64,000 bases of DNA from an uncultured Dorea sp. (GTDB taxonomy: Bacteria; Bacillota; Clostridia; Lachnospirales; Lachnospiraceae), in contig CANDQP010000001.1 of assembly GCA_947388185.1 (NCBI GenBank), forward strand, positions 17,604 through 81,603, in the 5' to 3' direction. Position 1 is the first letter of the stretch. Every line of letters begins with the position of its first letter. Positions 14,075-33,033 of the stretch are shown piece by piece. The position numbers and the translations under genes were made by a program. Under the pieces are notes generated by a model that saw only the letters and a list, made by a program, of their open reading frames with translations, had not been told where the DNA came from and did not search any database.

Positions 14075-14800
14075 ATGAACATAGCAGTAGTAGAAGACAG
14101 CAGGCGGGAGGCAGAAGAGTTGATCCGGTTTCTGGAACAATTTGGCAAGAAGCATGGCTGTGATCTGAGAATTTCATATTATATGAATGGGGAGGATTTT
14201 CTTGCGTCCCTTGGGAAAAATGATTATACAGCGGTATTCTTAGATATTTTCCTGGGGAAGATGAGCGGAATGGAGGCTGCCGGGCGGCTGTGGGAATATA
14301 ATCCGCAGTGTCAGATCATATTTCTGACATCGAGCAGAGAGCATATCCGGCAGGCATTCCAGGTACATTGTTTTGATTATATAGATAAGAAGGATTTCAC
14401 TTGTGAGCGGATCTTCGAGGTGATGGAAGACCTTAGAAGGAAGCTTCCTTCCCTGAACCGGTATCTGGAATTTGTCAGCGGGAACCGGTCTGTACGCCTT
14501 CCGATGAATAAGATCCAGCACGTGCTTTCAGACAATAATTACACGGTATTCGTGATGGAGGACGGGAAGGAGTACCGATACAGGATTCCCTTTGGCAATA
14601 TCTTAGAGCTGATGGAACCGGCAGAGAATTTCCTGAATTGCAACCGCGGTGTGCTGCTGAATATGAATGATATCGTGAAGGAAGAGGCGGATGTGTATGT
14701 GATGAAGAGCGGGCAGCGTTTCCCGATCCGAAGATTGGACCGTGCGCTGATCAAGGACCGGTATCATCAGTATCAGTTTGCCAAATTAGAGGAAATGTGA
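14075..14800 (+). CDS. LytTR-family response regulator (REC + LytTR DNA-binding domain)
   Basis: 241 aa. It has a REC domain (VFLDIFLGKMSGMEAA) and a C-terminal LytTR region (IQHVLSDNNYTVFVMEDGKEYRYRIPF...FLNCNRGVLLNMNDI). Confidence 0.9.
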   Translation: MNIAVVEDSRREAEELIRFLEQFGKKHGCDLRISYYMNGEDFLASLGKNDYTAVFLDIFLGKMSGMEAAGRLWEYNPQCQIIFLTSSREHIRQAFQVHCFDYIDKKDFTCERIFEVMEDLRRKLPSLNRYLEFVSGNRSVRLPMNKIQHVLSDNNYTVFVMEDGKEYRYRIPFGNILELMEPAENFLNCNRGVLLNMNDIVKEEADVYVMKSGQRFPIRRLDRALIKDRYHQYQFAKLEEM

Positions 14801-14811
14801 GGAAGAACGGT

Positions 14812-16146: not shown

Positions 16147-16175
16147 GGTTCTGGTTTTTGGAGAGGAGAGAAGAG

Positions 16176-17436: not shown

Positions 17437-18996
17437 ATGAAATTATACAAGAAGCTTACGGTGATATTTGCCGTGTGTATCTTAAGCTTCGGAATACTGG
17501 CATGTGCGGCGGGTTTCAAAGCGAATTACCGCCGGGAGCAGGAGCGCAACCAGGCTTATCTGCTTCGGTGTGCGCATCTTGCGGCGAAGATATTTCGGCA
17601 GTCAGACGTGGCAGAGCTTGCGTCAGACGGTGACAGCATTTATTATCAGGACTGTAAAAGAGAGATGGACCAGATTCAGAAGGAAATGGGATTAAAGTAT
17701 GTCTATACCTATGTCCCCTCTGAGGATGGGAGGTCGCTGACGGTCGCAATGATCTCGGGAATGACAGAGGATACCGGGTGGAAGCCGGGACAGATCGTGG
17801 AAGAAGAGGTACCTTCGGAGGCGCTTCATGTATATGAGGGAAGGGAAGAGAGCGGCTTTCGGATCGTCAGGAATCAATATGGCTATGTGGCGACCGCGTA
17901 CTGTCCGGTCTATGGGCCGGACGGAAGGATCCAGGCAGTAACGGGCGCGGATCTGGAACGCCTGGAGGTTGTGTCTGCGTATTTCAGGGAGGTCAGATGG
18001 GTATCCGCATGGATTCTTGCAGGCTGCGGGGTACTGTTCTTCCTGCTTCGGTACTTAAGCCGGCACTGTGTGATCCGTCCTGTCGTAGAATTGTCGGAGC
18101 ATATGGGACACTTCGTAAGAGACAGGGAGGAAGGGAGAGAATTTGCACGGCTCGCGGTCAAGAGCCGGGATGAGATCGGGCAGATGACCGAGACATTTAA
18201 CCAGATGGCGGAAGAGCTTGCATACTATATAAAGCAGACGGCAGATATGGCGGCTGCGGCGGAGCGCAAGAGGGCCGAGATGGAAGCCGCAAAGCGCATC
18301 CAGGAGGCAAGCCTGCCGGATGGAGATGACCCATATAAGGACGATCCCCGCTTCAGCCTCTATGCCGGTATGAAGGCGGCGAGACAGGTCGGGGGTGACT
18401 TCTATGATCATTTCAAGATATCCGATGACCGGCTTGCCACCGTGATCGGGGATGTCTCCGGCAAGGGGATCACGGCGGCGCTGTTCATGATGCGTGCCAT
18501 GACATTGATAAGAGAGCGGACACTGGAAGGAAGCGCTCCCTCCCGGATACTGGAGCAGGCCAATCAGGAGCTATGCGTCAGAAATCCATCGGGAATGTTC
18601 GTCACAGTATTCATCGGGATTCTGAACCTGAACACCGGAAGATATAGCTTCGCCAGCGCCGGTCACAATCCGCCTTACCTGTGCCGCGGTAATTTTGAAG
18701 CCATTCGCCTTGAATCAGGAGTCCCGTTAGGACTGTTTGAAGACGAAGAATATGTAAGCGCCGACCTGGAACTGAATTCCGGCGACAGCCTGTTCCTATA
18801 CACAGACGGCATAACCGAAGCCATGAACCGGGGGAAAGAACTATGGGGAGAAGTACGGCTTAAGGAGACATTGAATCTGCATCAAGATAAAACATGCGCC
18901 GAACTGCTCCATATGATTGACCATGCTGTAGCCGAGTTCGCAGGCGATGCAGAGCAGGCCGACGATATCACCATGCTCTGCCTGAAATATAATTGA
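17437..18996 (+). CDS. membrane-bound sensor phosphatase: TM - extracytoplasmic domain - TM - HAMP - PP2C/SpoIIE domain (RsbU/SpoIIE-like)
   Basis: 519 aa, starting 4 nt after the antiporter stop. It has HAMP DEIGQMTETFNQMAEEL and PP2C/SpoIIE motifs GGDFYDHF, IGDVSGKGITAALFM, AGHNPPY and TDGITEA. Confidence 0.85.
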   Translation: MKLYKKLTVIFAVCILSFGILACAAGFKANYRREQERNQAYLLRCAHLAAKIFRQSDVAELASDGDSIYYQDCKREMDQIQKEMGLKYVYTYVPSEDGRSLTVAMISGMTEDTGWKPGQIVEEEVPSEALHVYEGREESGFRIVRNQYGYVATAYCPVYGPDGRIQAVTGADLERLEVVSAYFREVRWVSAWILAGCGVLFFLLRYLSRHCVIRPVVELSEHMGHFVRDREEGREFARLAVKSRDEIGQMTETFNQMAEELAYYIKQTADMAAAAERKRAEMEAAKRIQEASLPDGDDPYKDDPRFSLYAGMKAARQVGGDFYDHFKISDDRLATVIGDVSGKGITAALFMMRAMTLIRERTLEGSAPSRILEQANQELCVRNPSGMFVTVFIGILNLNTGRYSFASAGHNPPYLCRGNFEAIRLESGVPLGLFEDEEYVSADLELNSGDSLFLYTDGITEAMNRGKELWGEVRLKETLNLHQDKTCAELLHMIDHAVAEFAGDAEQADDITMLCLKYN

Positions 18997-19019: not shown

Positions 19020-19340
19020 ATGACAATCACAATGAAAACAGAAGGCACCGCTGCCACGCTCCACGTAGAGGGCTGGCTTGATACCCAGTCTTCCCCTGAT
19101 CTTGGGAAGGCGGTCAAAGCGCTCCCGGAGGAGACGGCCGCCCTGATACTGGATTTTAAGAAGCTGGAGTATATCTCATCCTCCGGCCTTCGGGAAGTAG
19201 TAGCGGCATATAAGAAGATGAAGGATAAAAACGGCACATTCTCTGTGATCCATGTAGGGAACGAGGTCATGGATGTGTTCCGTCTTACCGGGTTTGACAA
19301 GAAACTGGATATCAGAAGCGCAGGAGAGGTGATAAGATGA
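19020..19340 (+). CDS. STAS-domain protein (anti-sigma-factor antagonist family, SpoIIAA/RsbV-like)
   Basis: ATG 19020 follows an AAGGAGG RBS; the track starts at TTG 18993. It has the conserved phosphorylatable-serine motif LEYISSSGLREVV and the C-terminal VFRLTGFDK. Its stop overlaps the NRPS start (ATGA at 19337-19340). Confidence 0.85.
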   Translation: MTITMKTEGTAATLHVEGWLDTQSSPDLGKAVKALPEETAALILDFKKLEYISSSGLREVVAAYKKMKDKNGTFSVIHVGNEVMDVFRLTGFDKKLDIRSAGEVIR

Positions 19341-22300
19341 GAGATGATTTTGCATATTACGGCGATATAGTCAGGGAGCCGGAGCTGGATTCCTGCCTGC
19401 TTGCCGATCATGACGGGACGGGAATGACGGAAGCGGAATATATACACAGTGTGAAGAAGGAAGCGGCGCTGGCGGCGGCTTCTTTTTGTATGGAACGGGA
19501 ATGGGATATGATAGAGTTGGCAAAATCAGTCCTGATGCTTGTATTATCGAAGTATACCGGCCATACGGCGGCGCTGGCGGCAGTTGCGGCAAAGGGGCGG
19601 TTGTTCCCGGTATTCCTTGACAGCGAGAAGACGCCGGATTTCCGGGAGTATTATGGCGGCTATATCAGGCAGGCGGAAGATAGCAGGATGCATGATGAGA
19701 TTCCCTTTGAAGAGCTTCGGGCGGAATTCGGATGGAGTTCTTTTCCTTATCTTACGAGTGAAGCCGGATTCTATGATTCCTTCTCGCTGGGGGATTATCA
19801 GGACAGCAAGGCGAAGCTTGGGATCTGCACTGTAATTGCAGGGCGCAAGCTTGTAGTGAAGGTAAAATATAACAGAGAAATATACGATCAGAAGACGATA
19901 GAGCGATTCCTTGAATCCTTTGATGCGGTCCTTATGCAGGTTGCAAAGGGAGAAGCCCGGATCGCGGAGTTGTCTCTGCTTACGGATAACTTGTCGGCAG
20001 AATTGGATGCATTGAACCGGACGGAATGCCCTTATGATGAGAATCGCACGGTGGTAGATCTGATCCAGGAGGCAATCGGGCGCTATGGTGACCGGACGGC
20101 GGTAGTCTATCGGGACCATAAGATGACCTATCGGCAGTTCGGGGAGATGACGGACCGGATCGCATCTTACATCCATTCCAGAGGAATCGGAAGGGAGGAT
20201 GTGGTGGCGATCCTGATACCCAGATGTGAGTATATGCCGGCTGCAGCTTACGGCGTAGTGAAAGCAGGAGCGGCTTATCAGCCGTTGGATCCAAGCTATC
20301 CGCCGGAGCGGCTGAAATTCATGATGGAGGATGCGAAGGTAAGGCTTCTGATCGCGGAGGAAGCGCTACTTCTTTTGGTGCCGGATTATGAGGGGGAGGT
20401 GCTGACGATAGAGGAGCTTGCCGGACTGCCGGACGCTGCGGCGGCAGAGGAGCTTAAGCCATGGTATCCGTCTAAGGAGGATCTGTTTATTCTGCTCTAC
20501 ACCTCGGGAACGACGGGGCTTCCCAAGGGTGTGATGCTGGAGCACGGCAACCTTGCGGCCTTCATCCACTGGTATCGGAATTATTATCATATGACGGAAG
20601 ACAGCAGGGCGGCGGCGTATGCTTCCTTTGGTTTTGACGCCAACATGATGGATACGTATCCGGCCCTGGCAAGCGGCGGGCAGGTACATATTATTGAGGA
20701 AGAGATCCGGCTTGAGCTTCTCGCGCTTCGGAATTACTTCGAGAAGAATCAGATCACCCACAGCTTCATGACGACCCAGGTGGGAAGACAGTACGCCAGC
20801 CTGTTCCCGGATGCCAGGTATCCGAAATACCTGTCTGTGGGCGGGGAGACGCTTGTCCCTGTCGCTCTGCCGGAATACAGATTCTATAATGTCTATGGGC
20901 CGACGGAGTGCACCATCCTTACGACGGCATTTCCGATGGACCGGATGTATCAGAACGTTCCGATCGGCAGCGCCAATCAGAATATCCGGCTGTATGTGAC
21001 CGACCGTCACGGGAAGCGGCTTCCGGTCGGTGTTCCGGGCGAGCTGTGGATTGCCGGGCCTCAGGTGGGAAGAGGATATCTGAACCGTCCGGAGAAGACG
21101 GAAGAGGTCTTTATCAGGAATCCGTTCTCTCAGGATGAGGGTTACCGGAGAGTCTACCGTTCCGGTGACATCGTTCGTTTCCTTCCGGATGGAAATATAG
21201 AGTTCATCGGAAGGAATGACGCCCAGGTGAAGATCCGGGGATTCCGCATCGAGCTTACGGAGGTGGAAGGAGTTATCCGCGAATTCGGCGGGATCAGGGA
21301 TGTTACGGTTGCAGCCTTTGACGAGGCGGGCGGCGGCAAGTTCATTGCGGCTTACGTTGTCTCTGACGATCCGGTGGATATCGGCGCGCTGTATGCATTT
21401 ATCCGGGAGAGGAAGCCGCCTTATCTGGTTCCGGCGGTCACCATGCAGATTGATCAGATCCCGCTCACCCAGAACCATAAGGTCAATAAGCGCGCCCTTC
21501 CGGTACCTAAGAAAGAGGCGGAAGAGATCGTAAGGCCGAAGGATGAGGTTCAGCAGAGGATCTATGACTGTCTGGCGGAGATTCTGGGGTATGAGGAGTT
21601 CGGGATCACGGAGGATATTCATGAGGCGGGGCTTACATCCATCGGCGCGCTTCGTTTTATCGTGATGCTGTCCAGGGAATTCGGGGTTACGGTCAATATC
21701 AGGGATCTGACAGAGTATTCTACCATAGAGAAATTGGGGGCATATATAGAGAATGCAGAGAGGGAAGGCGCAAGGGAGATCCGGGAGAAATATCCGCTGA
21801 CACAGACGCAGCTTGGAATCTATGTGGAATGTATGATGAATCCGGGGTCAGTCTTCTATAATCTGCCGGGGAGCTTCACATTCTCAAGGGAGGTTCCGTT
21901 CAGTATAGAGAGTCTTGGCAGAAGCATAAGGAAGGTGATAGACGCCCATCCTGCCATGAAGTGCAGTATCCGGACGGATGAGAACGGAGATACCTTCATG
22001 TATCCGAATGAGGACAGGGAGGTTGTGATCGAGCAGTTTGCCGGGACGGAAGAAGAGTATGAGACGTTCTTTCAGAACTTTGCGAAGCCCTTTGACTTGG
22101 CAGAGGGGCCGTTGTATCGGATTGCCACATTTCTGACCAGGGAACATCTGTATCTGGTGACGGATTTCCACCATATCATTAGCGACGGGACATCGATCGC
22201 AGTCTTTGCCGAAGAGCTTGACCGTGTCCTCACCGGAGAGGAGCCGGCAGGAGAGGACTATTCGCAGTTTGACATAGCCGTAAGCGAGGAGAAGGCAAGA

Positions 22301-25300
22301 GAGAGCGAGGCGTATCAGAAGGCCAGGGCATACTATGATTCCGTATTTGCCGGGGTGTCCGAATGTACGGTTGTGGACCGTGACGTCTATGACGAGGAGG
22401 AGAGCTGCGGCTTCTGCCGCCGCTACAGCAGCAGACTGTCCCCCAAGCGGGTGGAGAGTTACTGCCGGAAGCATAAGATCACGCCGAATGTGTTCTTCTT
22501 CTCTGTGATGGGATATGTGCTGGGGAAATACGCCGGGAGCGAGGAGGCCTGCTTTACGACGATCTATAACGGAAGAGGCGACGGCCGGACTGCGGGTACG
22601 GCCGGGATGCTGGTGAAGACGCTGCCGGTGCTGTGTATGCTTGAGGAACAGACGGAGATCCCGGATTATGTAAGCCGTGTGCAGGAACAGCTCTTGTCTT
22701 CCATGGCTAATGATATCTACTCCTTTGCAGAGATCAGCAGGGCATATGGGATCCGTCCGGAGATCATGTTCGTCTACCAGGGGGATGATTTCGTGGAGTT
22801 TGAGATCGGCGGGCAGAAGACCATCTTTCGCGAGGCGGTGTCCGATCGGGCGAAGGCGGCGATCTCTGTGAATATCTTCCTGGAGAACGGGAAGTACCGG
22901 TATGAGTTCGAATACCGGAAGAATATGTTCAGCGAAGCGTTCATAGAAGATCTGTACGAGGTCTTGACGGAGGCGGCAGTAAGCTTCCTTGGGGCGCTGA
23001 CCCTTGGAGACGTGAACATCCTGTCGGCAAGGCAGGAGAGGCTGATCGAGAGCTTCAACGAGACGGACTATCCGGTGGAGCCGGTCAGTGTGAATCGGTT
23101 ATTTGAAGCGTGGGTGAAAAAGGCACCTCAAAGGACGGCGGTGATCGCAAACGGAGAGAAACTGACCTATGAAGAACTGAATCATCTGGCCAACCGGCTT
23201 GCCCATTCCCTGATCGGGCTTGGAGTGAAAGAAGATACCATCGTGGGCCTGATCTTAGAGAGAAGCGTCAACGTCTATATCACCAGGCAGGGAATCCTGA
23301 AGGCAGGCGGCGCATTCCTTCCGCTGGTGCCGGAGTACCCGGATGACAGGATTGATTTCTGCCTGACGGATGCCGAGTGTCCTTATGTGATCACCACGGA
23401 GCAGATCAGGGATGAGAGAAGCGCCTTGTGGGCAGGCAAGCCTTACCGGGTATTGACGGTGGAGGAATTATTGAGGGCAGAAGAGGGAAGGGAGGAGGAA
23501 TGGGAGTCTGATCCCGGACTTGTGATTCAGACCTCTTCTCTGGCATACTGCCTCTACACCTCGGGATCCACGGGACGGCCCAAGGGTGTGCTGATCGAAC
23601 ACGGCAATCTCTGTAACTTCGTCAACTCCAATCCAAAGAATCCGGAGAGCACCAGTTATACGGCCAATGGAACCGTATCCCTTGCGCTGGCTTCTATCTC
23701 TTTTGATGTGTCGGTCATGGAAGAGTTCATACCGCTGTGCAACGGTATGACCATCTGTATGGCCAACGAGGAGGAGATCCACAATCCGCTTGCCCTTGCC
23801 GAACTTCTGATCAAGAATAAAGTGGACATCATGAAGTGTACGCCGTCATATATGACGAATATCATAGAGGTTCCCCAGATGCGGGAGGCTCTTGCCGGAG
23901 TGAAGGCATTTGTCATAGGGGCGGAGCCCTATCCGCAGACACTCTACGGTAAGATGCGAAGGGTCAATCCGACGGCTGTCATCGGCAACAGCTACGGGCC
24001 GACGGAGTGTACCGTGAGCTGTACCACGAAGATATTGGAGAATGACGGCGAGATCACGATCGGCGGTCCGCTCACGAATATGAAGCTCTATGTGGTTAAT
24101 CGGAAGAATAAGCTTCTCCCGGTGGGAGTAAGCGGCGAGCTGATCATATGCGGAGCCGGTGTGGGGAGAGGTTATGTGAAGCTTCCGGATAAGAACAGGA
24201 AGTCCTTCTTTAGGCTTCGCGGGCTTCCTGCCTATCACAGCGGGGATCTTGTCAAATGGAACCGAAAGGGCGAGATCGTGTTCCAGGGGAGGCTTGATAA
24301 TCAGGTGAAGCTTCGAGGACTTAGGGTGGAGTTAGACGAGGTTGAGGGTGCGATCAACACATTTGACGGAGTGAAGACAAGCAAGGTGATCGTAAGGAGT
24401 AACGGAAGCGAAGAGTATCTTGCAGGATATTTTACGGCGGAGAAGGAGATTGACCTTGCCATGCTCACAGAGCATTTAAGATCGAAACTCACCCATTATA
24501 TGGTGCCGAATGCCCTGATGCAGCTTGAGAAGATGCCCCTTACCGTCAACGGAAAGATTGACAAGAAGCAGCTTCCCAAGATCACTTACCAGGCGGCAGA
24601 AAGAGAATATGTGGAGCCTGTTACCGAACTTCAAAGGGAACTGTGCGGCAAATTTGCCGAGATCCTGACTCTTGACAGGGTAGGGATTACGGATAACTTT
24701 TTCGAGATCGGGGGCACATCCTTAAGTGCGACGAAGATTGTCATGTATGCGATCACAGAGGGGTATCCGGTGGTTTATAAGGATGTCTTCGCCAACCCAA
24801 CGCCGAAGAAACTTGCTGAATTCATTGAAGGGAAAGGGGTTCAGAAGACAGAGTGTAAGGATGCGGCGTCGGATATCAAGGAGTATGATTATTCTGCAAT
24901 CTGCAGGCTGCTCTCAAGGAACTGCAGCGAGAATGTGGAGCAGATCAAAGAAGGAAGCCTTAGCAATATCCTGCTTACGGGCGCGACCGGATTCTTAGGC
25001 ATCCATGTGCTGCGTGAATTCCTGTTAGGCTATAAGGGCAGGGCATACTGTCTGGTGCGGAAAGGGAATTATCCATCCAGCGAAAAAAGGCTGATGAATA
25101 TGCTGATGTATTACTTTGATACGCCGTTTCTGGATGCGTTTGAGGAACGGATCGTGTGTATCGACGGCGATATTACGGACCGGGATATGGTGCTAAGCCT
25201 TGAGGCGCTTCCATTTGCCACGGTGATCAACTGCGCGGCCTGTGTGAAGCATTTTGTGAAGGACGATCTGTTGGATCGGATCAATGTGGAGGGCGTCAGG

Positions 25301-26059
25301 AATATCACAGAGCTCTGCAGGCGGGCGGGCAGGCGTCTGGTACAGATTTCAACCACGTCCGTGGCTGGAGAGGGCAATGCGCATACGGTGCCGTCTACGA
25401 AGCTCATGCGGGAAGACGAACTGTACTTCGGCCAGATCTTGGAAAATGATTATATACGGACGAAGTTCCTGGCAGAACGTGTGATACTGGAGGCATGTGC
25501 AAAGGGCGAAGTAGAGGCGAAGATCATCCGTGTGGGGAATCTCATGAGCAGGAGATCAGACGGAGAGTTCCAGATTAATTTCGTAACCAATGGGTTCATG
25601 CGTGCCCTGGCGGCATACAAGACTCTGGGATGCTTCCCAATGGGAATGATGCATGCGCCGGCGGAGTTCTCGCCCATTGATTCCACGGCTCTGGCAGTGC
25701 TGAAGCTTGCGGCAAGCGATGGTGGTTTTACTGTTTTCCATGCTTATAACAGCCACCGGATCTATATGTCGGATGTGATCTATGCCATGCGCTCCTATGG
25801 GTTTGCCATCCGTATCGTACCGGATGACGAGTTCGAGAGGGTTCTTCATGAGACGGCGAAGGAAGGAGAGAAGAGCGATGCGGTTCTCGGCCTGATCGCC
25901 TATGCATCGGATGACGAGGAGCGGCGCTATGAACTGAAGTCGGATAACTTGTTTACAGCAGAAGCCCTCTATCGTCTTGGATACAAATGGCCGATCACGG
26001 ACGACCGGTATCTTGAGAATGCGATCGGTGCGTTGGATGGGCTGGAGTTTTTTGGATAA
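19337..26059 (+). CDS. bimodular non-ribosomal peptide synthetase, (partial C)-A-T-C-A-T-R with terminal thioester reductase
   Basis: 2240 aa. Approximate domains by motif:
- N-terminal C-lobe-like region without HHxxxDG: 19337-20011.
- A1 (20054-21511): LYTSGTTGLPKG, YGPTE, GELWIAGPQVGRGY, YRSGD, GRNDAQVKIRGFRIEL.
- T1 (21539-21751): EAGLTSIG.
- C (21785-23041): HHIISDG.
- A2 (23099-24571): LYTSGSTGRPKG, YGPTE, GELIICGAGVGRGY, YHSGD, GRLDNQVKLRGLRVEL.
- T2 (24608-24826): FFEIGGTSLSA.
- R (24959-26056): LLTGATGFLGIHVL, YIRTK. Confidence 0.95.
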   Translation: MRDDFAYYGDIVREPELDSCLLADHDGTGMTEAEYIHSVKKEAALAAASFCMEREWDMIELAKSVLMLVLSKYTGHTAALAAVAAKGRLFPVFLDSEKTPDFREYYGGYIRQAEDSRMHDEIPFEELRAEFGWSSFPYLTSEAGFYDSFSLGDYQDSKAKLGICTVIAGRKLVVKVKYNREIYDQKTIERFLESFDAVLMQVAKGEARIAELSLLTDNLSAELDALNRTECPYDENRTVVDLIQEAIGRYGDRTAVVYRDHKMTYRQFGEMTDRIASYIHSRGIGREDVVAILIPRCEYMPAAAYGVVKAGAAYQPLDPSYPPERLKFMMEDAKVRLLIAEEALLLLVPDYEGEVLTIEELAGLPDAAAAEELKPWYPSKEDLFILLYTSGTTGLPKGVMLEHGNLAAFIHWYRNYYHMTEDSRAAAYASFGFDANMMDTYPALASGGQVHIIEEEIRLELLALRNYFEKNQITHSFMTTQVGRQYASLFPDARYPKYLSVGGETLVPVALPEYRFYNVYGPTECTILTTAFPMDRMYQNVPIGSANQNIRLYVTDRHGKRLPVGVPGELWIAGPQVGRGYLNRPEKTEEVFIRNPFSQDEGYRRVYRSGDIVRFLPDGNIEFIGRNDAQVKIRGFRIELTEVEGVIREFGGIRDVTVAAFDEAGGGKFIAAYVVSDDPVDIGALYAFIRERKPPYLVPAVTMQIDQIPLTQNHKVNKRALPVPKKEAEEIVRPKDEVQQRIYDCLAEILGYEEFGITEDIHEAGLTSIGALRFIVMLSREFGVTVNIRDLTEYSTIEKLGAYIENAEREGAREIREKYPLTQTQLGIYVECMMNPGSVFYNLPGSFTFSREVPFSIESLGRSIRKVIDAHPAMKCSIRTDENGDTFMYPNEDREVVIEQFAGTEEEYETFFQNFAKPFDLAEGPLYRIATFLTREHLYLVTDFHHIISDGTSIAVFAEELDRVLTGEEPAGEDYSQFDIAVSEEKARESEAYQKARAYYDSVFAGVSECTVVDRDVYDEEESCGFCRRYSSRLSPKRVESYCRKHKITPNVFFFSVMGYVLGKYAGSEEACFTTIYNGRGDGRTAGTAGMLVKTLPVLCMLEEQTEIPDYVSRVQEQLLSSMANDIYSFAEISRAYGIRPEIMFVYQGDDFVEFEIGGQKTIFREAVSDRAKAAISVNIFLENGKYRYEFEYRKNMFSEAFIEDLYEVLTEAAVSFLGALTLGDVNILSARQERLIESFNETDYPVEPVSVNRLFEAWVKKAPQRTAVIANGEKLTYEELNHLANRLAHSLIGLGVKEDTIVGLILERSVNVYITRQGILKAGGAFLPLVPEYPDDRIDFCLTDAECPYVITTEQIRDERSALWAGKPYRVLTVEELLRAEEGREEEWESDPGLVIQTSSLAYCLYTSGSTGRPKGVLIEHGNLCNFVNSNPKNPESTSYTANGTVSLALASISFDVSVMEEFIPLCNGMTICMANEEEIHNPLALAELLIKNKVDIMKCTPSYMTNIIEVPQMREALAGVKAFVIGAEPYPQTLYGKMRRVNPTAVIGNSYGPTECTVSCTTKILENDGEITIGGPLTNMKLYVVNRKNKLLPVGVSGELIICGAGVGRGYVKLPDKNRKSFFRLRGLPAYHSGDLVKWNRKGEIVFQGRLDNQVKLRGLRVELDEVEGAINTFDGVKTSKVIVRSNGSEEYLAGYFTAEKEIDLAMLTEHLRSKLTHYMVPNALMQLEKMPLTVNGKIDKKQLPKITYQAAEREYVEPVTELQRELCGKFAEILTLDRVGITDNFFEIGGTSLSATKIVMYAITEGYPVVYKDVFANPTPKKLAEFIEGKGVQKTECKDAASDIKEYDYSAICRLLSRNCSENVEQIKEGSLSNILLTGATGFLGIHVLREFLLGYKGRAYCLVRKGNYPSSEKRLMNMLMYYFDTPFLDAFEERIVCIDGDITDRDMVLSLEALPFATVINCAACVKHFVKDDLLDRINVEGVRNITELCRRAGRRLVQISTTSVAGEGNAHTVPSTKLMREDELYFGQILENDYIRTKFLAERVILEACAKGEVEAKIIRVGNLMSRRSDGEFQINFVTNGFMRALAAYKTLGCFPMGMMHAPAEFSPIDSTALAVLKLAASDGGFTVFHAYNSHRIYMSDVIYAMRSYGFAIRIVPDDEFERVLHETAKEGEKSDAVLGLIAYASDDEERRYELKSDNLFTAEALYRLGYKWPITDDRYLENAIGALDGLEFFG

Positions 26060-26073
26060 AGAAAGAGGATTCT

Positions 26074-27888
26074 ATGGAGAGAAATGAAAAATTGATCAAG
26101 ACCAAGCTTTGGCAGTATCTCTTGCCGAGTATTATGATGACTGCCGCGCTTCAGCTGGGGAATATCGTGGATACCATGCTTGTGGGCAATATCCTGGGGG
26201 CGGATGCCATGTCGGCCGTCAAGGTGGGAATGACCATAGACCATATCATGGAAATCCCGGGATATGTCCTTGGGGTGGGCGGAAGCGTCGCGGCGGGAAT
26301 CCTGCTTGGGAAACGGAAGAGGGATGAGGCGAACCGTGTATTCTCCGTGACGCTGACGGTGAGTATGCTGTGCGGGATATTATTCGCGCTGCTTTCGGTC
26401 ACATCGCCGATGCTGGCAAAGGCACTCACCGGGGGCGGCTCCCTCTTGAGGGATGTGGAGAGATTCGTATTCGTGACTCTGCTTGGAGCGCCGGTTATCA
26501 GCCTTGCGCTGCAGTTTATGAGCTATGTGGCAGTGGACAATAACCCGTCGGTAGCGTCTGCCTACGTGATCGTATCCAATGTGATCAACCTGGCGCTGGA
26601 TTATCTGATTCTTAAGTTCACGGCGCTTGGGACGGCGGGAGCCGCATTGTCGACGGTGCTGGGGTACGGGATCGCGATGCTGGTGCTGATCCGCTATCTT
26701 CGATCTCCCAAGCGGATGCTTCGGTATGTGATGCCCTTTGGGGGCGGGAAGGACAGGAAGCATCCGGGGGAAGACGCGAAGCAGGGGCGAAGGGAAGGCC
26801 AGGCAGCGGGCGCTTTTGTACTGGCTTTCTCAACGGGAGTGCCTACGCTTCTGTATATGATCTTCCTGACCCTTAAGGATCTGGGACTGAATACCATGAT
26901 CGTGCGTCTGATCGGGAATGACGCGATGGCGGTCTATACCGTGTGTACCAATGTGGTACTTCTGGTAGAACTTCTGGTGGGCGGGATCATCGGTACCATC
27001 GCCTCGATCGGCGGGGTGATCTACGGGGAGAAGGATTACTTCGGAATCCGAAGCCTTGTGAAGCATGTGCTGCTGTACAGCTATGCCGTACTTGCCGTGT
27101 TACTGGTTATCCTGCTGGTATTTCCGGAAGCTGTGGTTGCATTATTCGGTATCACAGGCGGCGCTCTTTTGGAGATGGCGGCGGCGGCCCTTCGGATCTT
27201 CGTGTGTTCTCTGCCGTTCTATCTGCTGAACAAATTTATGACAACCTACTATCAGAGTACGGAGAAAACGAAGTTATCGGGGATCGTGACATCGCTGCAG
27301 ACTTGTGTGGCGATCCTTCCGCTTGCCGTTGTATTTCTCTTTGCAGCAAGGGCGGCTGGGCTTGATCTTCTGAACGCGCTGATGGCGGCATTCGTGTTCA
27401 GCGAGATCCTTACGGCTGTGACCGTATGCATCTACCGGAAGATGAAGTATAAGGGACAGGGATTCCTGCTTCTTCCTAAGAGAGAAGAGGAGGCAGTCTA
27501 TGATATCTCGGTGGTCGCGGACTTAGAAGAGGCGGAGCGTGTTCCAAGAGAGATCATGGAGTTCTGCCAGGCGCATCAGGTAGATGCGGGGAGGGCGAAC
27601 CTCCTTGCGGTGGCGGCGGAGGAGATGCTGGTGAATATTATCCGGTACGGCGGGAAGAAGGCGGATACGATAGATATCAATCTGTGTATTACGGAAGACA
27701 CCCTGCTGTTCCGGTTAAGAGACAACGGAGTCCCGTTCGATCCTACGGATTATTCGGCGGATACCGGAGAGTATGAGATCCATGGGATCGAGGTGGTGAA
27801 GAATATCACGGACCGGATGCAGTACATGCGGGTGCTGGATCTGAATCATACAGTAATAGAGATGAAAAGAGGATGCAGGGAAAGTTGA
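26074..27888 (+). CDS. MATE-family efflux transporter fused to a C-terminal RsbW/SpoIIAB-like HATPase (anti-sigma-factor kinase-type) domain
   Basis: 604 aa, starting 14 nt after the NRPS stop with an AAGAGGA RBS. Roughly aa 1-455 are a 12-TM MATE-like protein. Roughly aa 470-604 (nt 27481-27885) read LLAVAAEEMLVNIIRYG...LLFRLRDNGVPFDPTDY...GIEVVKNITDRMQY. This resembles the N-box and G1-box of HATPase_c_2 kinases and is a paralogue of the stand-alone protein at 29636-30025. Confidence 0.8.
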   Translation: MERNEKLIKTKLWQYLLPSIMMTAALQLGNIVDTMLVGNILGADAMSAVKVGMTIDHIMEIPGYVLGVGGSVAAGILLGKRKRDEANRVFSVTLTVSMLCGILFALLSVTSPMLAKALTGGGSLLRDVERFVFVTLLGAPVISLALQFMSYVAVDNNPSVASAYVIVSNVINLALDYLILKFTALGTAGAALSTVLGYGIAMLVLIRYLRSPKRMLRYVMPFGGGKDRKHPGEDAKQGRREGQAAGAFVLAFSTGVPTLLYMIFLTLKDLGLNTMIVRLIGNDAMAVYTVCTNVVLLVELLVGGIIGTIASIGGVIYGEKDYFGIRSLVKHVLLYSYAVLAVLLVILLVFPEAVVALFGITGGALLEMAAAALRIFVCSLPFYLLNKFMTTYYQSTEKTKLSGIVTSLQTCVAILPLAVVFLFAARAAGLDLLNALMAAFVFSEILTAVTVCIYRKMKYKGQGFLLLPKREEEAVYDISVVADLEEAERVPREIMEFCQAHQVDAGRANLLAVAAEEMLVNIIRYGGKKADTIDINLCITEDTLLFRLRDNGVPFDPTDYSADTGEYEIHGIEVVKNITDRMQYMRVLDLNHTVIEMKRGCRES

Positions 27889-27904: not shown

Positions 27905-27938
27905 CCGGATGCCTTGCACGCTGCTGCAAGGCATCCGG
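27905..27938. terminator. perfect 14-bp-stem hairpin between convergent genes (probable bidirectional terminator)
   Basis: CCGGATGCCTTGCA-cgctgc-TGCAAGGCATCCGG. No clear U-tract on either side. Confidence 0.5.
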
Positions 27939-27955: not shown

Positions 27956-29596
27956 TTATAGTTCTTCTACTTTACAGAAATGTTCTTTCGTTTTCTTGTC
28001 ATAACTGATTCCGACTGCCAGGATCCGTCCTGTGTATTTAGGAGTTTCACCCAGCTTTCCATGGAAACGCAAGGCATATTTCTTATCACGGATCTGCCGG
28101 ATGGCATCTTCAGGAGTCCTGCCGACTTTCAGTTCGAGGATGAAGGCATCCATATTCTTGCGGACAGGATAGAAGATAAAATCCACAAAACCTTCCCCTG
28201 CCTTGTCTTCCCGCTCTACATGGTAGCTGTCCCTTGCAGCCAGATAGACAAGGTTAACGATTGCCGACAGTTCAATCTCGCTGTTGTAAGAGAAAATCGG
28301 AGATTCCGTGTCGTGGGCATATTTCAATATCATGGCCATTTCCTGGGTGTTGCCGGTCAGGGTTGCATGCAGCATCTTTTTGGAGGCATTTGCCAGATTG
28401 TAAATGTAGCCCAGAGATTTCTCTTTCTTCATCATAGCGGCGAAACTGTCCATCAATTCCTGATTAGGGATGTACACAAGTCCGTCTTTGTAGGTCAAAA
28501 GACCATAGGTCACCATAGCCGAATAGATCTCATCCTTCGTCTCAAGCTGCATAGAAATGGCCGCATACTCCTGGATGTCGGCGGGGATTCCCTCACCTGC
28601 AAAGAGGAGCGCCAGGTCATCCTGTATATTGTCTATATCATTCTTAATATAACTGAATACGGAATCATAGATTCCGGAACTGGTCCAGTAATTGTGTAAT
28701 TGATTATTCGTCAGGGCGCATACGATAGAACGCGGATTGTACATTCGTTCCCCGCCGGCGGTGTAATAGCCGTCGTACCAGGTGCGCAGATCCCCGCGTG
28801 TGAACCTAACCGGATCGGTAGTCTGCTGATAGATATCGTAGAGCCGGTCGACCTCCAGATTAGAGAAACCGAAGTATTCACTGAAACGTTCAGTCGTTGC
28901 CATATGGTATTCGAGGAACATATTCAGTTCCGAGCCTTCTGAATATTTGGCAATTGGCAGGATACCGGTCATATAGACAAGCTCTGCGTAAATATTGTCT
29001 TTCAGGAGTGATTTTAAAAAGAGAAGATATTCCTTCCTGTCCGGATCCGTAATAAAATTCATATGGAATACGGCGTCCCACTCATCCAGGACGAAGACGA
29101 AGCGATGTCCGGTCTTCTGATAGACCAGAGATAATATATTCCAGATAGAATGTGCCGGATCTATCTTGCATTCCGGAAAACATTCGGATAAGTCTGTTTT
29201 CAGGTCTTGAAGGATCCAGTTGATATAAGTATCGTATGAGCGGCAGTTTTCCGGCATCCTGCTGAAATCAATATAGATAACATCATAGTGGTTCAGATAT
29301 TCGAGGTAGCCTTTGCAGGAATTCTTCTCAAGTTTTACGGCAATCTCCGGTGATGCGATCTGAAGCTTGCCGAATATCTCGCCAGAGTCCATCGCTTTGC
29401 CAAAGAACGCCCCGATCATATTGGCCATGACGCTTTTCCCAAACCGGCGCGGCCGGGTCAGGCAGAAGAAGCGCTGGCTTGTGCCAAGCGCAGGAATGAG
29501 TTCGGCGATCAGGGCAGTCTTGTCTACAAAGTATCTTTCTGATGCGATTGCACGGTAAGAATCGAAAGGCACCCTGCTGTTTAAATATAATCCCAT
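27956..29596 (-). CDS. AAA-ATPase-like domain protein with C-terminal PD-(D/E)XK nuclease-like domain
   Basis: 546 aa with a GGAAGGAGAA RBS. The N-terminus YFVDKTALIAELIP...FFCLTRPRRFGKS matches the AAA-ATPase_like pattern. The C-terminus GFVDFIFYP...ILELKVGRT...QIRDKKY matches a PDDEXK_9-like pattern. It is more AT-rich than its neighbours (about 42-45% GC in hand-counted lines). Confidence 0.8.
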   Translation of the reverse strand: MGLYLNSRVPFDSYRAIASERYFVDKTALIAELIPALGTSQRFFCLTRPRRFGKSVMANMIGAFFGKAMDSGEIFGKLQIASPEIAVKLEKNSCKGYLEYLNHYDVIYIDFSRMPENCRSYDTYINWILQDLKTDLSECFPECKIDPAHSIWNILSLVYQKTGHRFVFVLDEWDAVFHMNFITDPDRKEYLLFLKSLLKDNIYAELVYMTGILPIAKYSEGSELNMFLEYHMATTERFSEYFGFSNLEVDRLYDIYQQTTDPVRFTRGDLRTWYDGYYTAGGERMYNPRSIVCALTNNQLHNYWTSSGIYDSVFSYIKNDIDNIQDDLALLFAGEGIPADIQEYAAISMQLETKDEIYSAMVTYGLLTYKDGLVYIPNQELMDSFAAMMKKEKSLGYIYNLANASKKMLHATLTGNTQEMAMILKYAHDTESPIFSYNSEIELSAIVNLVYLAARDSYHVEREDKAGEGFVDFIFYPVRKNMDAFILELKVGRTPEDAIRQIRDKKYALRFHGKLGETPKYTGRILAVGISYDKKTKEHFCKVEEL

Positions 29597-29635: not shown

Positions 29636-30025
29636 CTATGCGAGAAGTGTTGTCTTGATTCTGAGTACCAAGACATTCCTGGAGTCCTCATACGCATAGC
29701 TGACATCGTCCACGAATCCAAATGCGATCAGTCTCCCAAGTCCCCCGATCTGTGTATCCAGGTCATAATCGTCGGGATCTGCAGGGTTATCGAGAGGGTT
29801 GAAGGGTCTTCCCTCATCACGGAAAGTCATGACGATCGGTCCTGTAGCCTCAAGGGTAATTTCGACAAGCCCGGCCTCCCCTTCATAGGCATAGGAACAG
29901 ATGTTGACGAATACTTCCTCGGCGGCGAGGCATAATTTCTTCTTCGAGGCATCCGGGATATCGGGATGTTCCATGATAAGCGTCTGTACGAGCTTAAGAT
30001 TATCAAGCCGGGCTGTTATGGTCAT
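29636..30025 (-). CDS. stand-alone RsbW/SpoIIAB-like HATPase (anti-sigma regulatory factor, Ser/Thr kinase type)
   Basis: ATG 30025 is preferred; the track uses TTG 30034. LCLAAEEVFVNICSYAY...MTFRDEGRPFNPLD...GGLGRLI are N, G1 and G2-like boxes. It starts about 20 nt (ATG 30025; 11 nt if the TTG at 30034 is used) downstream of the hybrid kinase stop, so the two are probably co-transcribed. Confidence 0.75.
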   Translation of the reverse strand: MTITARLDNLKLVQTLIMEHPDIPDASKKKLCLAAEEVFVNICSYAYEGEAGLVEITLEATGPIVMTFRDEGRPFNPLDNPADPDDYDLDTQIGGLGRLIAFGFVDDVSYAYEDSRNVLVLRIKTTLLA

Positions 30026-30045
30026 TGCAATCAACCTCTGTAAAT

Positions 30046-33033
30046 CTAATGAAATAAAAATGTTCGCAGGGCTTCTTCTAACTTCTCGATATCCACCGGC
30101 TTGGAAATATGTCCGTTCATACCGGCTTCTTCGGATTTCCTGATATCGTCTGCGAAAGCGTCCGCCGTCATGGCGACGATAGGGATCGTCTTAAGATCCT
30201 CTCTGCCGGACGACCGGATCGCCCTGGTGGATTCATATCCGTTCATTACCGGCATCTGGATATCCATGAAGATCAGGTCATAGTAGCCGGGTTCGTGGTC
30301 AAGCACACAGTCAACCGCGAGCTGGCCATTCAAAGCCTGGTCTGCCTGGATGCCTACGATGTCAAGAAGCTCTGCCGCCACCTCGATATTCAGTTCATTG
30401 TCCTCCACCAGAAGGACTCTTTTGCCTGAGAAATCCTGCTCCTTGAAGGTCTCAAGCGCAGTGGCAGGTCTCTCGCTGTTATCAAGACCCAGCACATCCT
30501 TCAACACTTTCATCAGCCGGGACTTGAACAAAGGCTTCTCGATAAATGCGTCGATACCCGCATCCATTGCCTGCGCCTCAATATCTGACCAGTCATAGGC
30601 CGACAGGATAATGAGCGGAATATCATTGCCGGTCAGGTTGCGGATCTCCTTTGCCGTAGTCAGGCCATCCTTTCGCGGCATCTTCCAGTCAAGGATTACA
30701 ACGGCGAAGTCTCTTGCGGCCTTACGGGCTTCGATGATGCGCTTGATAGCAGAATCACCGTCAAGCACATATTCTGCATCCATGTTCAGGCTGTTCAGAA
30801 TCTCGCAGGCGCTCTCGCAGGCAGCTTCCTCATCATCTGCTACAAGCACCGGAAGAGAAGAGAAGGCTTCAATATCCGCCTGTGTAATGTCGTTGAGTTT
30901 CAAGTATACCTGAACGGTGAATCTGGAGCCTTCTCCAAGAGTACTCGCTACCTTGATGTCGCCGTTCATCATACGGGCGATATTGACGGCGATACTCATG
31001 CCAAGACCGGTTCCTTCGATCTTGCCGATGCGCGAATCTGCAGCGCGGGAGAATGGTTCGAAGATCTTCTGGATATAATCCTTCTCCATTCCGATACCGG
31101 TATCCTCAAAAGTAAATTCAAAGAATCCGCTGCCTGCAATATGTGAAGGCTTCTCTTCAATATAAAGGCTGATCTTTCCGCCCTCTGGTGTGAACTTGAC
31201 CGCGTTGCCCATGATATTCATGAATATCTGCTGCAGCCGCTGTTCGTCGCCGATCACGCTCTCGTGTTCCACATTGACCACGTTCACGCAGAGTTCCAGA
31301 TTCCTGGCTTCCATCTGGGAATGGAAGATGGTCAGCAGATTCTCGAAGGTATCGGACAGGTTAAAGATACCCTCTGTAAGGCTGACTTTCCCGCTCTCGA
31401 TCCGGCTCATATCCAGGACTTCATTGATCAGTCCCAGAAGGTGCTTGCTGGAGACGGTGATCTTGCCAAGAGCATCGAGGACGCGTTCCTTATCGTCTAT
31501 ATGCATGCCGGCGACAGCGGTCATACCAAGGATGGCGTTCATCGGTGTGCGGATATCGTGGCTCATCCGGGACAGGAAATCGCTCTTTGCCAGGTTGGCG
31601 GCTTCTGCTCGTTCTGCTGCCAGAGCGAGCATCTCTTTCTGTTTCTCTTCACGGTGGATGATCTCGTCTATACTTCGGATGGTCAGCGTAATGGCGGTTG
31701 CTTGTTCCCCGTCCATCTCAGCTATGGTGGCGACGGTGGAGCACCATTCGTATTTGCCGTTTTCATCGATACGTTTATACTGAAGTTCAATGTGGTCCTC
31801 GGTCTCCAGAAGCTTTACGATGTTAGACAGATCAAGGAATTGCTGTACCTGTTCCCGGTGCTCTTCTGCAATGATACCGGCTTCAAAACGCTTGGATACG
31901 AATTCTGTGTTATAATCTCCGGATTCTGTATTCCTGCCGCGGTGGGGATAGAGCATATCATATCTTCCGGTGAGCATATCAACGTAATAGATAGCCCGAT
32001 AGGCCCGTGCCGTGCTGTTCATGGCATTCTGATAGATCCGGTTGCGGTCTGCCATCCGATTGCGCTCTTCTACAAGGAGCTGGTTTTGTTTCTCCTGCCT
32101 GTATTCCCTGACAGCCTGGAAGATGATCAGCGCCAGGCCAAGGAGGGCTACCATGATACTTATGTAGTTAAAGGTGTCAAGACCTGTAAAAATCTCGGAT
32201 TCCGGTATGGTCAGTATAGCCGTCCATCCGTTCGTCATTTGGTGAAAATAAACGTTACGGGCATGCCCGTCCATGGCTATGACATTCTCCAACACCTGAC
32301 TTCCCTTAGCCAGGTTAGACTGCTCCATAAATCCGTCTACCAGCACCTGGAATTCATCGTAGGTGTGGTCGGTAGCGGCCTTGAAATAAAGCAGGGTTCC
32401 CTCTTTGTCGATCAGGTAGTAAGAGGCATTCGCCGGAAGAGTGAGGTTCTCATTATTCAGCTCGAAATAAGAGAACATCATATCAATGGCGAGAAAGCTT
32501 CCGGTAGACGGGACGGTCTTGCACATGGTGATCACGTTCTGCCCGGTTACCACATCAACATATGCCGGGGAGATATAGATCCCGCCGTCTGCCGCTGCGG
32601 CGCCCTGATAGTAGTCCGTATCGGTGACATCATAGTCTTCCATATCTTCGATCTCCGGAATGTTAGATATGAAATGATCGTTGTCAAGAGCCTTGCCATA
32701 GACCTGAATATTCTCTGGGCCGTAGAGCTCGGTCAGGCCGTTCATGAAAGGGTAGAGGCCTTCCTTGAGCTCCTTGAGTGAAACGCCGTCCTGTTCACGT
32801 TCTTCGATATAGTTCACGCTGAGAGTCAGAATGGACTCACAGGCGCGCATATTGCTCTCTTCGGATGTGGAATAATTCTCCACGAGTGAAAGTCCCATCT
32901 TGTTGGTGTTGTCCATCAATGAATTGCGCAGGATGTTCGTACACAGCATGATCACCAGGATAAACATCACAAGCACGATCATGTTGTTCCGCATCTTCCT
33001 AAGTAACTGTTTTTTCTTCTTTTTACTCATCAT
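30046..33033 (-). CDS. hybrid sensor histidine kinase/response regulator (TM - Cache-like ectodomain - TM - PAS-like - HisKA - HATPase - REC - REC)
   Basis: 995 aa. It has the H-box SDFLSRMSHDIRTPMNAILG, N/G boxes NIMGNAVKFTPEGG, DTGIGM and GTGLGMSI, and two receiver domains (VILDWKMPRKDG; IFMDIQMPVMNG). Confidence 0.9.
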   Translation of the reverse strand: MMSKKKKKQLLRKMRNNMIVLVMFILVIMLCTNILRNSLMDNTNKMGLSLVENYSTSEESNMRACESILTLSVNYIEEREQDGVSLKELKEGLYPFMNGLTELYGPENIQVYGKALDNDHFISNIPEIEDMEDYDVTDTDYYQGAAAADGGIYISPAYVDVVTGQNVITMCKTVPSTGSFLAIDMMFSYFELNNENLTLPANASYYLIDKEGTLLYFKAATDHTYDEFQVLVDGFMEQSNLAKGSQVLENVIAMDGHARNVYFHQMTNGWTAILTIPESEIFTGLDTFNYISIMVALLGLALIIFQAVREYRQEKQNQLLVEERNRMADRNRIYQNAMNSTARAYRAIYYVDMLTGRYDMLYPHRGRNTESGDYNTEFVSKRFEAGIIAEEHREQVQQFLDLSNIVKLLETEDHIELQYKRIDENGKYEWCSTVATIAEMDGEQATAITLTIRSIDEIIHREEKQKEMLALAAERAEAANLAKSDFLSRMSHDIRTPMNAILGMTAVAGMHIDDKERVLDALGKITVSSKHLLGLINEVLDMSRIESGKVSLTEGIFNLSDTFENLLTIFHSQMEARNLELCVNVVNVEHESVIGDEQRLQQIFMNIMGNAVKFTPEGGKISLYIEEKPSHIAGSGFFEFTFEDTGIGMEKDYIQKIFEPFSRAADSRIGKIEGTGLGMSIAVNIARMMNGDIKVASTLGEGSRFTVQVYLKLNDITQADIEAFSSLPVLVADDEEAACESACEILNSLNMDAEYVLDGDSAIKRIIEARKAARDFAVVILDWKMPRKDGLTTAKEIRNLTGNDIPLIILSAYDWSDIEAQAMDAGIDAFIEKPLFKSRLMKVLKDVLGLDNSERPATALETFKEQDFSGKRVLLVEDNELNIEVAAELLDIVGIQADQALNGQLAVDCVLDHEPGYYDLIFMDIQMPVMNGYESTRAIRSSGREDLKTIPIVAMTADAFADDIRKSEEAGMNGHISKPVDIEKLEEALRTFLFH

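Follow-up and report, generated by a model that had tools for sequence, protein, structure and literature searches.

Partner switching is best known for the control of sigma factors, as in the SpoIIE-SpoIIAA-SpoIIAB-sigma F and RsbU-RsbV-RsbW-sigma B modules of Bacillus, and direct control of an enzyme by such a circuit has only recently been shown. The SiaABCD system of Pseudomonas aeruginosa is a partner switch with a non-sigma output, in which SiaC activates the diguanylate cyclase SiaD. In Anabaena, the output of the HenR/All4160 switch is likewise not a sigma factor, the target being a glycosyltransferase (PMC13555669 and its preprint). STAS proteins or domains can also contact the cytoplasmic part of transporters and be needed for, or modulate, their activity, as described for MlaB and MlaF in the MlaFEDB complex (PMC7367683) and for the SLC26/SulP carriers (PMC8256260). 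Here we describe a protein from an uncultured Dorea sp. (assembly GCA_947388185.1, contig CANDQP010000001.1, positions 17,604 to 81,603; the whole stretch of 64,000 nucleotides is called the window below) in which a MATE transporter with 12 transmembrane (TM) helices carries a cytoplasmic tail resembling RsbW and SpoIIAB. Its gene closes an operon that also encodes a PP2C phosphatase, a STAS protein and a nonribosomal peptide synthetase (NRPS). We read the fusion as the dedicated exporter of the adjacent NRPS product, with the tail as the RsbW-like output end of a partner switch, and we put the probability of this reading at roughly 55%.

The fusion gene occupies 26074..27888 of the forward strand as an uninterrupted frame of 604 amino acids, running from ATG to TGA (27886-27888). 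It starts 14 nucleotides (nt) past the stop codon of the NRPS gene, with a purine-rich ribosome-binding site (aaagaaagagga) ahead of the ATG. The product comprises a DinF-type MATE part of 12 TM helices (residues 1-455; 26074..27438), a cytoplasmic linker after TM12 (residues 456-473; 27439..27492) and an RsbW/SpoIIAB-like HATPase_c_2 domain (residues 474-604 plus the stop codon; 27493..27888). The linker shows a conserved "LLLP" in alignments of 12 and 42 homologues and no regular secondary structure in the AlphaFold2 model described below. The original prediction, which was made from the letters alone, proposed a single 604-residue open reading frame (ORF) joining a 12-TM MATE-like transporter to a C-terminal domain, and this description stands: the frame is open, both Pfam domains score above their cut-offs and 12 TM helices are present in the model.

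The fusion is genuine. The 90% cluster of the protein holds 97 member sequences (NCBI, ENA and Logan), and more than 100 homologues of 580-605 residues, with 58-99% identity, carry both Pfam domains in one frame. The alignments of 12 and 42 homologues are continuous across the junction between the MATE part and the tail. An assembly artefact or frameshift at this junction (about 27440-27480), a risk already raised when the fusion was first noticed, is ruled out, since these homologues, more than 100 in number and independently assembled, keep the frame unbroken. With the tail alone as query, 1.84 billion representatives yielded 1406 matches at E <= 1e-3 and 191 at E <= 1e-10, and a MATE N-terminus was found in all 80 tail matches of at least 400 residues among the matches listed. 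The family is large, with 191 clusters (50% identity, E below 1e-10) that are nearly all MATE-fused, and it goes together with reductase-terminated NRPS clusters of gut Firmicutes. Judged from these matches, this HATPase_c_2 sub-family appears to occur essentially only as a MATE tail.

The public names of the fusion homologues are "hypothetical protein", "ATP-binding protein" and "MATE family efflux transporter". Because the architecture is already present and automatically annotated in databases, the sequence family itself is not new; what is new is that it is read as the output of a partner switch. The full-text literature gave no description of a MATE protein with an RsbW-like tail, in a search that did not reach the paper of Guo et al. 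2017 on gut NRPS clusters. This agrees with the initial remark, whose author knew of no characterised MATE protein with this architecture.

We analyzed the membrane part by profile, sequence and structure. MatE (PF01554) scores 105.2 bits against a cut-off of 24.9, in two stretches; TIGR00797 aligns to residues 18-422 with a score under its strict cut-off, and NCBIfam gave generic MATE models and weak RsbA/RsbW matches, and nothing more. A full-length AlphaFold2 model built from 42 homologues (pLDDT 79, pTM 0.77) consists of 12 long helices followed by an alpha/beta domain, with most TM helices above a pLDDT of 90. In Foldseek this model matched 6fhz (TM-score 0.84, E 8e-12) as well as DinF-BH (4LZ6), PfMATE, NorM and ClbM (4Z3N), and DinF-BH is also the top sequence match of the membrane part in the PDB (E 6e-19). 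All 42 homologues conserve D33 of the fusion, and in the alignment with DinF-BH (BH2163) it falls on the aspartate of TM1, Asp40, which reportedly serves cation coupling in that protein. The MATE part is a DinF-type, probably H+-coupled antiporter. Between the two MATE lobes, a central loop on the cytoplasmic side (residues ~211-247) is rich in K/R and includes an insertion of ~20 residues rich in K/R/D/E (residues 226-247; 26749-26814), modelled at a pLDDT below 50, which some homologues have (e.g. P0034) and the majority lack.

In the tail, HATPase_c_2 matches residues 481-596 with 47.3 bits against a cut-off of 27.4, covering positions 2-124 of the 127 in the profile. The full-length model matched MATE structures alone in Foldseek, with none for the tail, and the tail was therefore modelled separately (pLDDT 73). 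The best matches of this model are SpoIIAB (1L0O, 1TIL, 1TH8, 1TID), UsfX of Mycobacterium tuberculosis (8IH8) and RsbW of Bacillus subtilis (6M36); chains of these three proteins make up its top eight matches, with E-values of 1e-7 to 4e-6 and TM-scores of 0.6-0.86. The structures nearest to the tail are thus anti-sigma kinases, all solved with a STAS or sigma partner, and SiaB-SiaC (6KKO) is also among the fold matches. A sequence search of the tail against the PDB gave a weak VraS match alone (E 0.008), so that the fold search was needed. Since the Pfam profile and the predicted fold agree, the label "RsbW/SpoIIAB-type" is justified. A chance Pfam match is ruled out by the score over the gathering cut-off together with the independent fold match. 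The structure predicted for the fusion on its own is accordingly a MATE fold followed by a SpoIIAB/RsbW-like fold, as the original prediction would have it.

The two motifs on which that prediction had relied are present, the N-box AAEEMLVNIIRYG at residues 514-526 and the G1-like LRDNGVPFDP at residues 548-557. The tail retains E516, E517 and N521 of the N-box and D550 and G552 of G1, all invariant in the 42 homologues. The G2 box is missing: EIHGIE stands in place of GGLG, and the lid is ~6-11 residues shorter than in canonical neighbours. The motifs of the MATE tails were aligned with those of the kinases, stand-alone or SpoIIE-fused, that their loci encode, and with those of RsbW and SpoIIAB; the canonical kinases in this alignment all have the N-box E...N, a G1 of the form DxGxP[FY][DN]P and a G2 "IGGLG". 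Over 65 full-length representatives of the fused family, E517 is retained in 64, N521 in 58, D550 in 63 and G552 in 64. The GxG motif is missing in 62 of the 65 and present in 6/6 canonical references, while the single glycine G571 is retained in 54. Because the N-box and G1 are conserved, the fused tail probably still binds nucleotide.

The ratio of nonsynonymous to synonymous substitution rates (dN/dS), calculated against the closest orthologue because synonymous sites are saturated beyond it, is ~0.04 for the tail and 0.08 for the membrane part, and on this measure the tail is under strong purifying selection. About 30 tail residues are invariant across the 42 homologues, including the surface motifs HGIE and YMRVLDLN; H570, G571, I572 and E573 are invariant among close homologues. 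The assignment of an RsbW/SpoIIAB-type kinase domain is thus borne out in part. The HATPase_c_2 fold is supported by profile and structure, whereas the word "kinase" is insecure, given the missing G2 box and shortened lid (62/65 without GxG), a second clade that also lacks the N-box Asn and the G1 Gly, and canonical GGLG kinases usually encoded alongside. Nor is the resemblance of the tail to the stand-alone kinase at 29636-30034 a close one, as had been stated: the two are 33% identical over 93 residues (E 1e-9).

The operon offers a candidate partner for such a domain. The fusion is the last of seven forward-strand genes separated by 4-nt overlaps or by gaps of at most 14 nt, and its place as the last cistron of an NRPS operon is a context that the original prediction had left out. 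The fourth gene (17437..18996, forward) encodes a phosphatase with HAMP and SpoIIE (PP2C) domains (SpoIIE 179 bits). Its arrangement is TM helix, extracytoplasmic domain of ~160 residues, TM helix, HAMP and SpoIIE, and because two hydrophobic segments (residues 7-25 and 186-204) flank that stretch of ~160 residues, it looks like a membrane sensor. The fifth gene (19020..19340, forward) encodes a single-domain STAS protein of the RsbV/SpoIIAA type (50.7 bits); the mechanically called ORF starts at TTG 18993, and ATG 19020 behind AAGGAGG is the likelier start. Its "YISSSGL" aligns with "MDSSGL" of SpoIIAA, with the serine at the S58 position. The full set of PP2C, STAS and RsbW-like domain is therefore present within the operon. 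No sigma factor gene was found in the operon with Pfam.

The sixth gene (19337..26059, forward) encodes a dimodular NRPS of 2240 residues with the order adenylation, thiolation, condensation, adenylation, thiolation, reductase (A-T-C-A-T-R), as seen from two AMP-binding, two PP-binding, one Condensation and one NAD_binding_4 domain. Dimodular NRPSs with a terminal reductase release dipeptide aldehydes, which cyclise to pyrazinones, and gut commensals carry a widespread family of such enzymes (PMC8210680; PMC12327764). By analogy, the product of the window's NRPS is presumably a dipeptide aldehyde or pyrazinone. Because the fusion is the last cistron of the NRPS operon and its relatives are almost always NRPS-linked, it is best read as the dedicated exporter of this product. 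By eye, the N-terminal ~230 residues of the NRPS (19337-20050), ahead of the first A domain, resemble a condensation domain in its C-terminal half. A complete starter C domain is found in relatives such as L054, whose products would accordingly be N-acylated.

A canonical RsbW-type kinase with N-box, G1 and G2 "IGGLG" is encoded separately on the reverse strand at 29636..30034 (HATPase_c_2, 65.8 bits). It shares 60% identity with the SpoIIE-fused kinase domain of the related locus L001, which provides a Rosetta-stone link between the stand-alone kinase and the phosphatase of the operon. On this comparison it is the probable STAS kinase of the system. Phosphatase orthologues in relatives bear such a canonical HATPase_c_2 domain as an extra C-terminal part. 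Canonical GGLG kinases are usually co-encoded with the fusion, as a stand-alone gene in the window and fused to PP2C in relatives. Because the G2 box is lost family-wide and canonical GGLG kinases are co-encoded, the tail is most likely a STAS-docking output of the partner switch, as far as its motifs allow this to be judged.

To place the operon among its relatives, 185,579 species genomes were scanned, yielding 45 loci that we annotated with window-derived seeds and small hidden Markov models. The source genomes of the A-T-C-A-T-R synthetase are metagenome-assembled genomes (MAGs) of Lachnospiraceae or Oscillospiraceae from mouse, rabbit and human gut, and the window itself matched Lachnospiraceae bacterium A77_70.CF.DSS and an uncultured Dorea MAG. 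The window's own clade (43-100% identity) includes MAGs of Lachnospiraceae, Oscillospiraceae, Ruminococcus, Faecalicatena, Roseburia, Selenomonadaceae and Acutalibacteraceae, and in practically all loci whose context is long enough the fusion adjoins an NRPS with this same architecture. Of the 21 distinct loci of this clade, 13 have a STAS gene no more than 10 kb away, directly upstream of the NRPS or beside the fusion, and it is often accompanied by SpoIIE or a SpoIIE::HATPase_c_2 fusion (L001, L008, L010, L011, L027). Seven more distant tail relatives, looked up separately, added five further lineages. The gene order is NRPS, fusion, STAS and SpoIIE::HATPase_c_2 in L052; phosphopantetheinyl transferase (PPTase), NRPS, fusion, STAS and SpoIIE::HATPase_c_2 in L054; NRPS, fusion and PPTase in L055; and fusion then NRPS in L049. 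Neither NRPS nor STAS occurs at the fusion locus of L056.

Two loci of unusual arrangement were observed. In L019 (9965-17230), two tandem MATE::HATPase_c_2 genes follow the NRPS, and SpoIIE and a stand-alone canonical kinase come next, with no STAS gene within 10 kb. In L009 (2012-3290), two STAS genes, of the types "EGRLDT...SSAGL" and "EGWLDTQSS...SSSGL", stand on either side of a canonical stand-alone kinase gene, immediately ahead of the NRPS, which hints, by analogy, at a two-tier switch like RsbS/T plus RsbV/W.

A second clade, at ~25% identity, was found in Eubacteriales, Synergistaceae, Sphaerochaetaceae and Clostridium sp. 1001271st1 H5 (L031-L040; e.g. L036 9621-14624 and L031 8266-13850). 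Its members are MATE/MurJ-like transporters with a degenerate HATPase_c_2 tail. The N-box Asn is replaced by S, A, T or V, G1 reads DxA, and the Pfam scores of 19 and 30 bits lie at or under the cut-off; by its motifs this tail is a clear pseudokinase. The clade is NRPS-free, and a STAS gene is present in all nine loci with upstream context, accompanied by either a stand-alone kinase or a SpoIIE, in some cases with a kinase domain, and by an LPG_synthase_C-like or formyltransferase-like (Formyl_trans_N-like) enzyme. L031 and L032 additionally have a gene of the sigma-70 family immediately before STAS and, downstream, C39-peptidase ABC exporters.

With few STAS genes per genome, a rough estimate is that chance neighbours within 10 kb would occur in ~3% of loci. 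The fusion-STAS linkage is therefore real, and it is maintained through several rearrangements. The conserved neighbourhood strongly supports, at the level of gene content, a functional link between the fusion and the STAS/PP2C partner-switching set. Such a link had been proposed from the window alone and now finds backing in the window's clade, in L052 and L054 and in the NRPS-free clade.

These observations can be combined into a candidate mechanism. The HAMP-PP2C phosphatase would sense an extracytoplasmic cue and dephosphorylate the STAS protein, and the canonical kinase, possibly with the tail itself, would re-phosphorylate it. Unphosphorylated STAS would dock on the tail, by analogy with SpoIIAA and RsbV on SpoIIAB and RsbW, and docking would shift how the tail sits against the transporter, switching export. 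Our guess, on the same analogy with RsbV/SpoIIAA, is that binding of STAS would relieve an auto-inhibited pump. The LytTR two-component pair encoded by the first genes would probably govern transcription of the whole operon independently. This suggests that export of a metabolite is switched by protein phosphorylation and not only by transcription. In a more specific form, which we offer tentatively and which may well prove wrong, the tail would be an intramolecular gate in which the transporter has taken the place of the sigma factor, and an extracellular cue would open or close peptide-aldehyde export within seconds through STAS acting on a nucleotide-binding, non-catalytic domain.

Several points weigh against the partner-switch output that we favour. 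The binding of STAS to the tail is argued from analogy and the direction of regulation is a guess, and the lid region has low confidence in both structural models. The near-invariance of E517, N521, D550 and G552 argues that nucleotide binding still matters, and the tail may be a working kinase; some GHKL kinases, for example those of the AgrC type, are active despite a degenerate G2 box. RsbW-type proteins function as dimers, in contrast to MATE transporters, which generally occur as monomers. In addition, no STAS gene lies within 10 kb in 8 of the 21 window-clade loci (e.g. L003), and the STAS-less loci L017, L018, L020 and L003 retain a fully conserved tail. Because of these loci, STAS may not be the sole or obligatory partner, or it may be encoded elsewhere.

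Among the alternatives, the one that survives best, although we consider it unlikely, reverses the roles of the two parts and corresponds to the second of the two options in the original prediction. The tail would be an active RsbW-type kinase and the MATE part a sensor, with the conformational or ion cycle of the pump setting kinase activity on STAS; free STAS would then act on another target, for example the NRPS or the pair of canonical kinase and hybrid histidine kinase. Such a transceptor would account for the N-box Glu/Asn and G1 Asp/Gly, which are almost invariant in the fused family as expected for ATP binding, and for five loci (L007, L013, L023, L025 and L026) with a phospho-serine STAS and no other kinase within 10 kb. 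It fits poorly, however, with the family-wide absence of the G2 box and part of the lid, and with a second clade that has the marks of a clear pseudokinase and still retains the same neighbourhood. Canonical kinases, often phosphatase-fused, are also co-encoded in most loci, and the operon shows no evident separate STAS target.

The more constant neighbour of the fusion in the main family is in fact the NRPS, which is found in nearly all loci, including the eight without STAS, and is always adjacent to and co-directional with the fusion. This raises the possibility of a docking role, in which the synthetase (or its carrier or reductase domain) is bound by the tail and thereby brought to the membrane, the reactive aldehyde passing directly to the pump and STAS being accessory or unrelated. 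We regard this as improbable. The NRPS-free clade with its STAS/PP2C context implies that this type of fusion needs no NRPS, STAS is the established ligand class of the tail's fold, and we know of no precedent for a GHKL domain docking an NRPS.

It is still less probable that the tail is a tethered anti-sigma factor, sequestering a sigma factor at the membrane as RsbW and SpoIIAB do until STAS releases it. The closest structures include anti-sigma factors in complex with sigma F (1L0O, 8JZT), and the sigma-70-family gene upstream of STAS in L031 and L032 would fit such a role. However, a search of 48 loci with the L031 sigma seed found a system-adjacent sigma gene in these two loci only, the other matches being weak and falling in ORFs several kb off in L009 and L018. 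The window's operon lacks a sigma factor gene, an absence among neighbours that leaves a partner encoded elsewhere possible, and it already holds a LytTR regulator for transcription. Least credible of all is that the tail is a decaying remnant, merely structural or stabilising and without signalling as proposed for some SulP STAS domains: the lost G2 box, the low model confidence in the lid and the further decay of the tails in L028, L030 and the second clade would suit it, but a tail dN/dS of ~0.04 against the closest orthologue, ~30 invariant residues in 42 homologues with HGIE and YMRVLDLN on the surface among them, retention of the fusion in more than 100 clusters at 50% identity and consistent linkage with STAS and PP2C do not.

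The remaining genes of the operon and its flanks were also annotated. The operon opens on the forward strand with a LytTR-type response regulator (14075..14800; Pfam Response_reg and LytTR), which overlaps by 4 nt a membrane GHKL histidine kinase of AgrC-like type (14797..16146; HATPase_c_5, 70 bits) with several hydrophobic segments in its N-terminal half. These are followed by a protein of the Na+/H+ exchanger family (16158..17432, forward; Na_H_Exchanger, 137 bits), found at the same place of the operon in L004-L007 only; speculatively, it might support the ion gradient for the MATE pump. Between the convergent genes downstream of the fusion lies a perfect 14-bp stem-loop (27905..27938; RNA fold -34.2 kcal/mol, z = -5.3), the probable end of the operon.

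On the reverse strand beyond the hairpin lies an AAA-ATPase_like/PDDEXK_9 gene (27956..29596; Pfam). It is missing in L004, where the fusion protein is identical and the kinase lies ~32 nt from the fusion stop, and present in L005; in L028, too, members of this family stand on the flanks of the system. Its presence or absence looks like an insertion polymorphism. No clean insertion junction was found against L004, as the flanks diverge right after the stop codon. The stand-alone kinase, in turn, lies 11 nt downstream of a reverse-strand gene (30046..33033) for a hybrid histidine kinase of 995 residues with dCache, PAS-like, HisKA, HATPase_c and two receiver domains (Pfam). Through this protein, the STAS switch may receive a second sensory input.

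If the tail is such an intramolecular gate, the fusion would be the first secondary transporter shown to be under partner-switch control, and a widespread class of NRPS clusters in gut commensals would have a general checkpoint that acts after translation. A transporter target with a built-in RsbW-like receptor would add an output class to these circuits, and few cases would be comparable in which a MATE pump is under fast post-translational control. The gut family of reductase-terminated NRPSs makes dipeptide aldehydes that inhibit host proteases, and production in native strains is hard to obtain (PMC12327764). The circuit of sensor phosphatase, STAS and pump tail would offer a testable handle on the timing of release of such molecules in the gut. 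Furthermore, the two clades provide a series from a putative nucleotide-binding tail to a clear pseudokinase, which should be useful for understanding how a kinase evolves into a docking domain.

Among described systems, the Bacillus modules share with the window a SpoIIE-family PP2C, a single-domain phospho-serine STAS protein and an HATPase_c_2 domain, and SpoIIE and many RsbU-like phosphatases are membrane sensors, as the window's phosphatase appears to be. Unlike these modules, the window has no sigma factor in the operon, its RsbW-like domain is tethered to a 12-TM transporter and has no G2 box, a further, canonical kinase has a gene of its own, and the output is presumably transport and not transcription. 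The gut Clostridia dipeptide-aldehyde NRPS family, reportedly described by Guo et al. 2017 and said to include the ruminopeptin of Schneider and Balskus 2018, and AusA/PznA of Staphylococcus aureus have the same dimodular, reductase-terminated A-T-C-A-T-R organisation as the window's enzyme. On the transporter side, ClbM of the colibactin island is likewise a MATE gene within a biosynthetic cluster, with a matching fold and the TM1 Asp conserved, whereas ClbM and DinF-BH are plain proteins of ~450 residues without a cytoplasmic regulatory domain. In MlaFEDB and SLC26/SulP, STAS binds an ABC ATPase or is built into the carrier, with no PP2C/kinase cycle on a free STAS protein and no RsbW-like receptor.

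In Vibrio fischeri, a single protein, SypE, unites an RsbW-like kinase with a PP2C and acts on SypA, a STAS protein (PMC10120452). The window's relatives with SpoIIE::HATPase_c_2 beside a STAS gene likewise join the two activities in one chain, in the reverse domain order, with the PP2C N-terminal, whereas the window itself splits them into separate genes. The closest precedents in terms of output are SiaABCD and HenR/All4160, in which a PP2C, a kinase and a STAS-like protein control an enzyme directly by protein-protein contact, although neither involves a MATE protein or an NRPS cluster. Unlike in these two systems, the window's circuit would act on a secondary transporter, with STAS received by an RsbW-like domain that is itself fused to this target.

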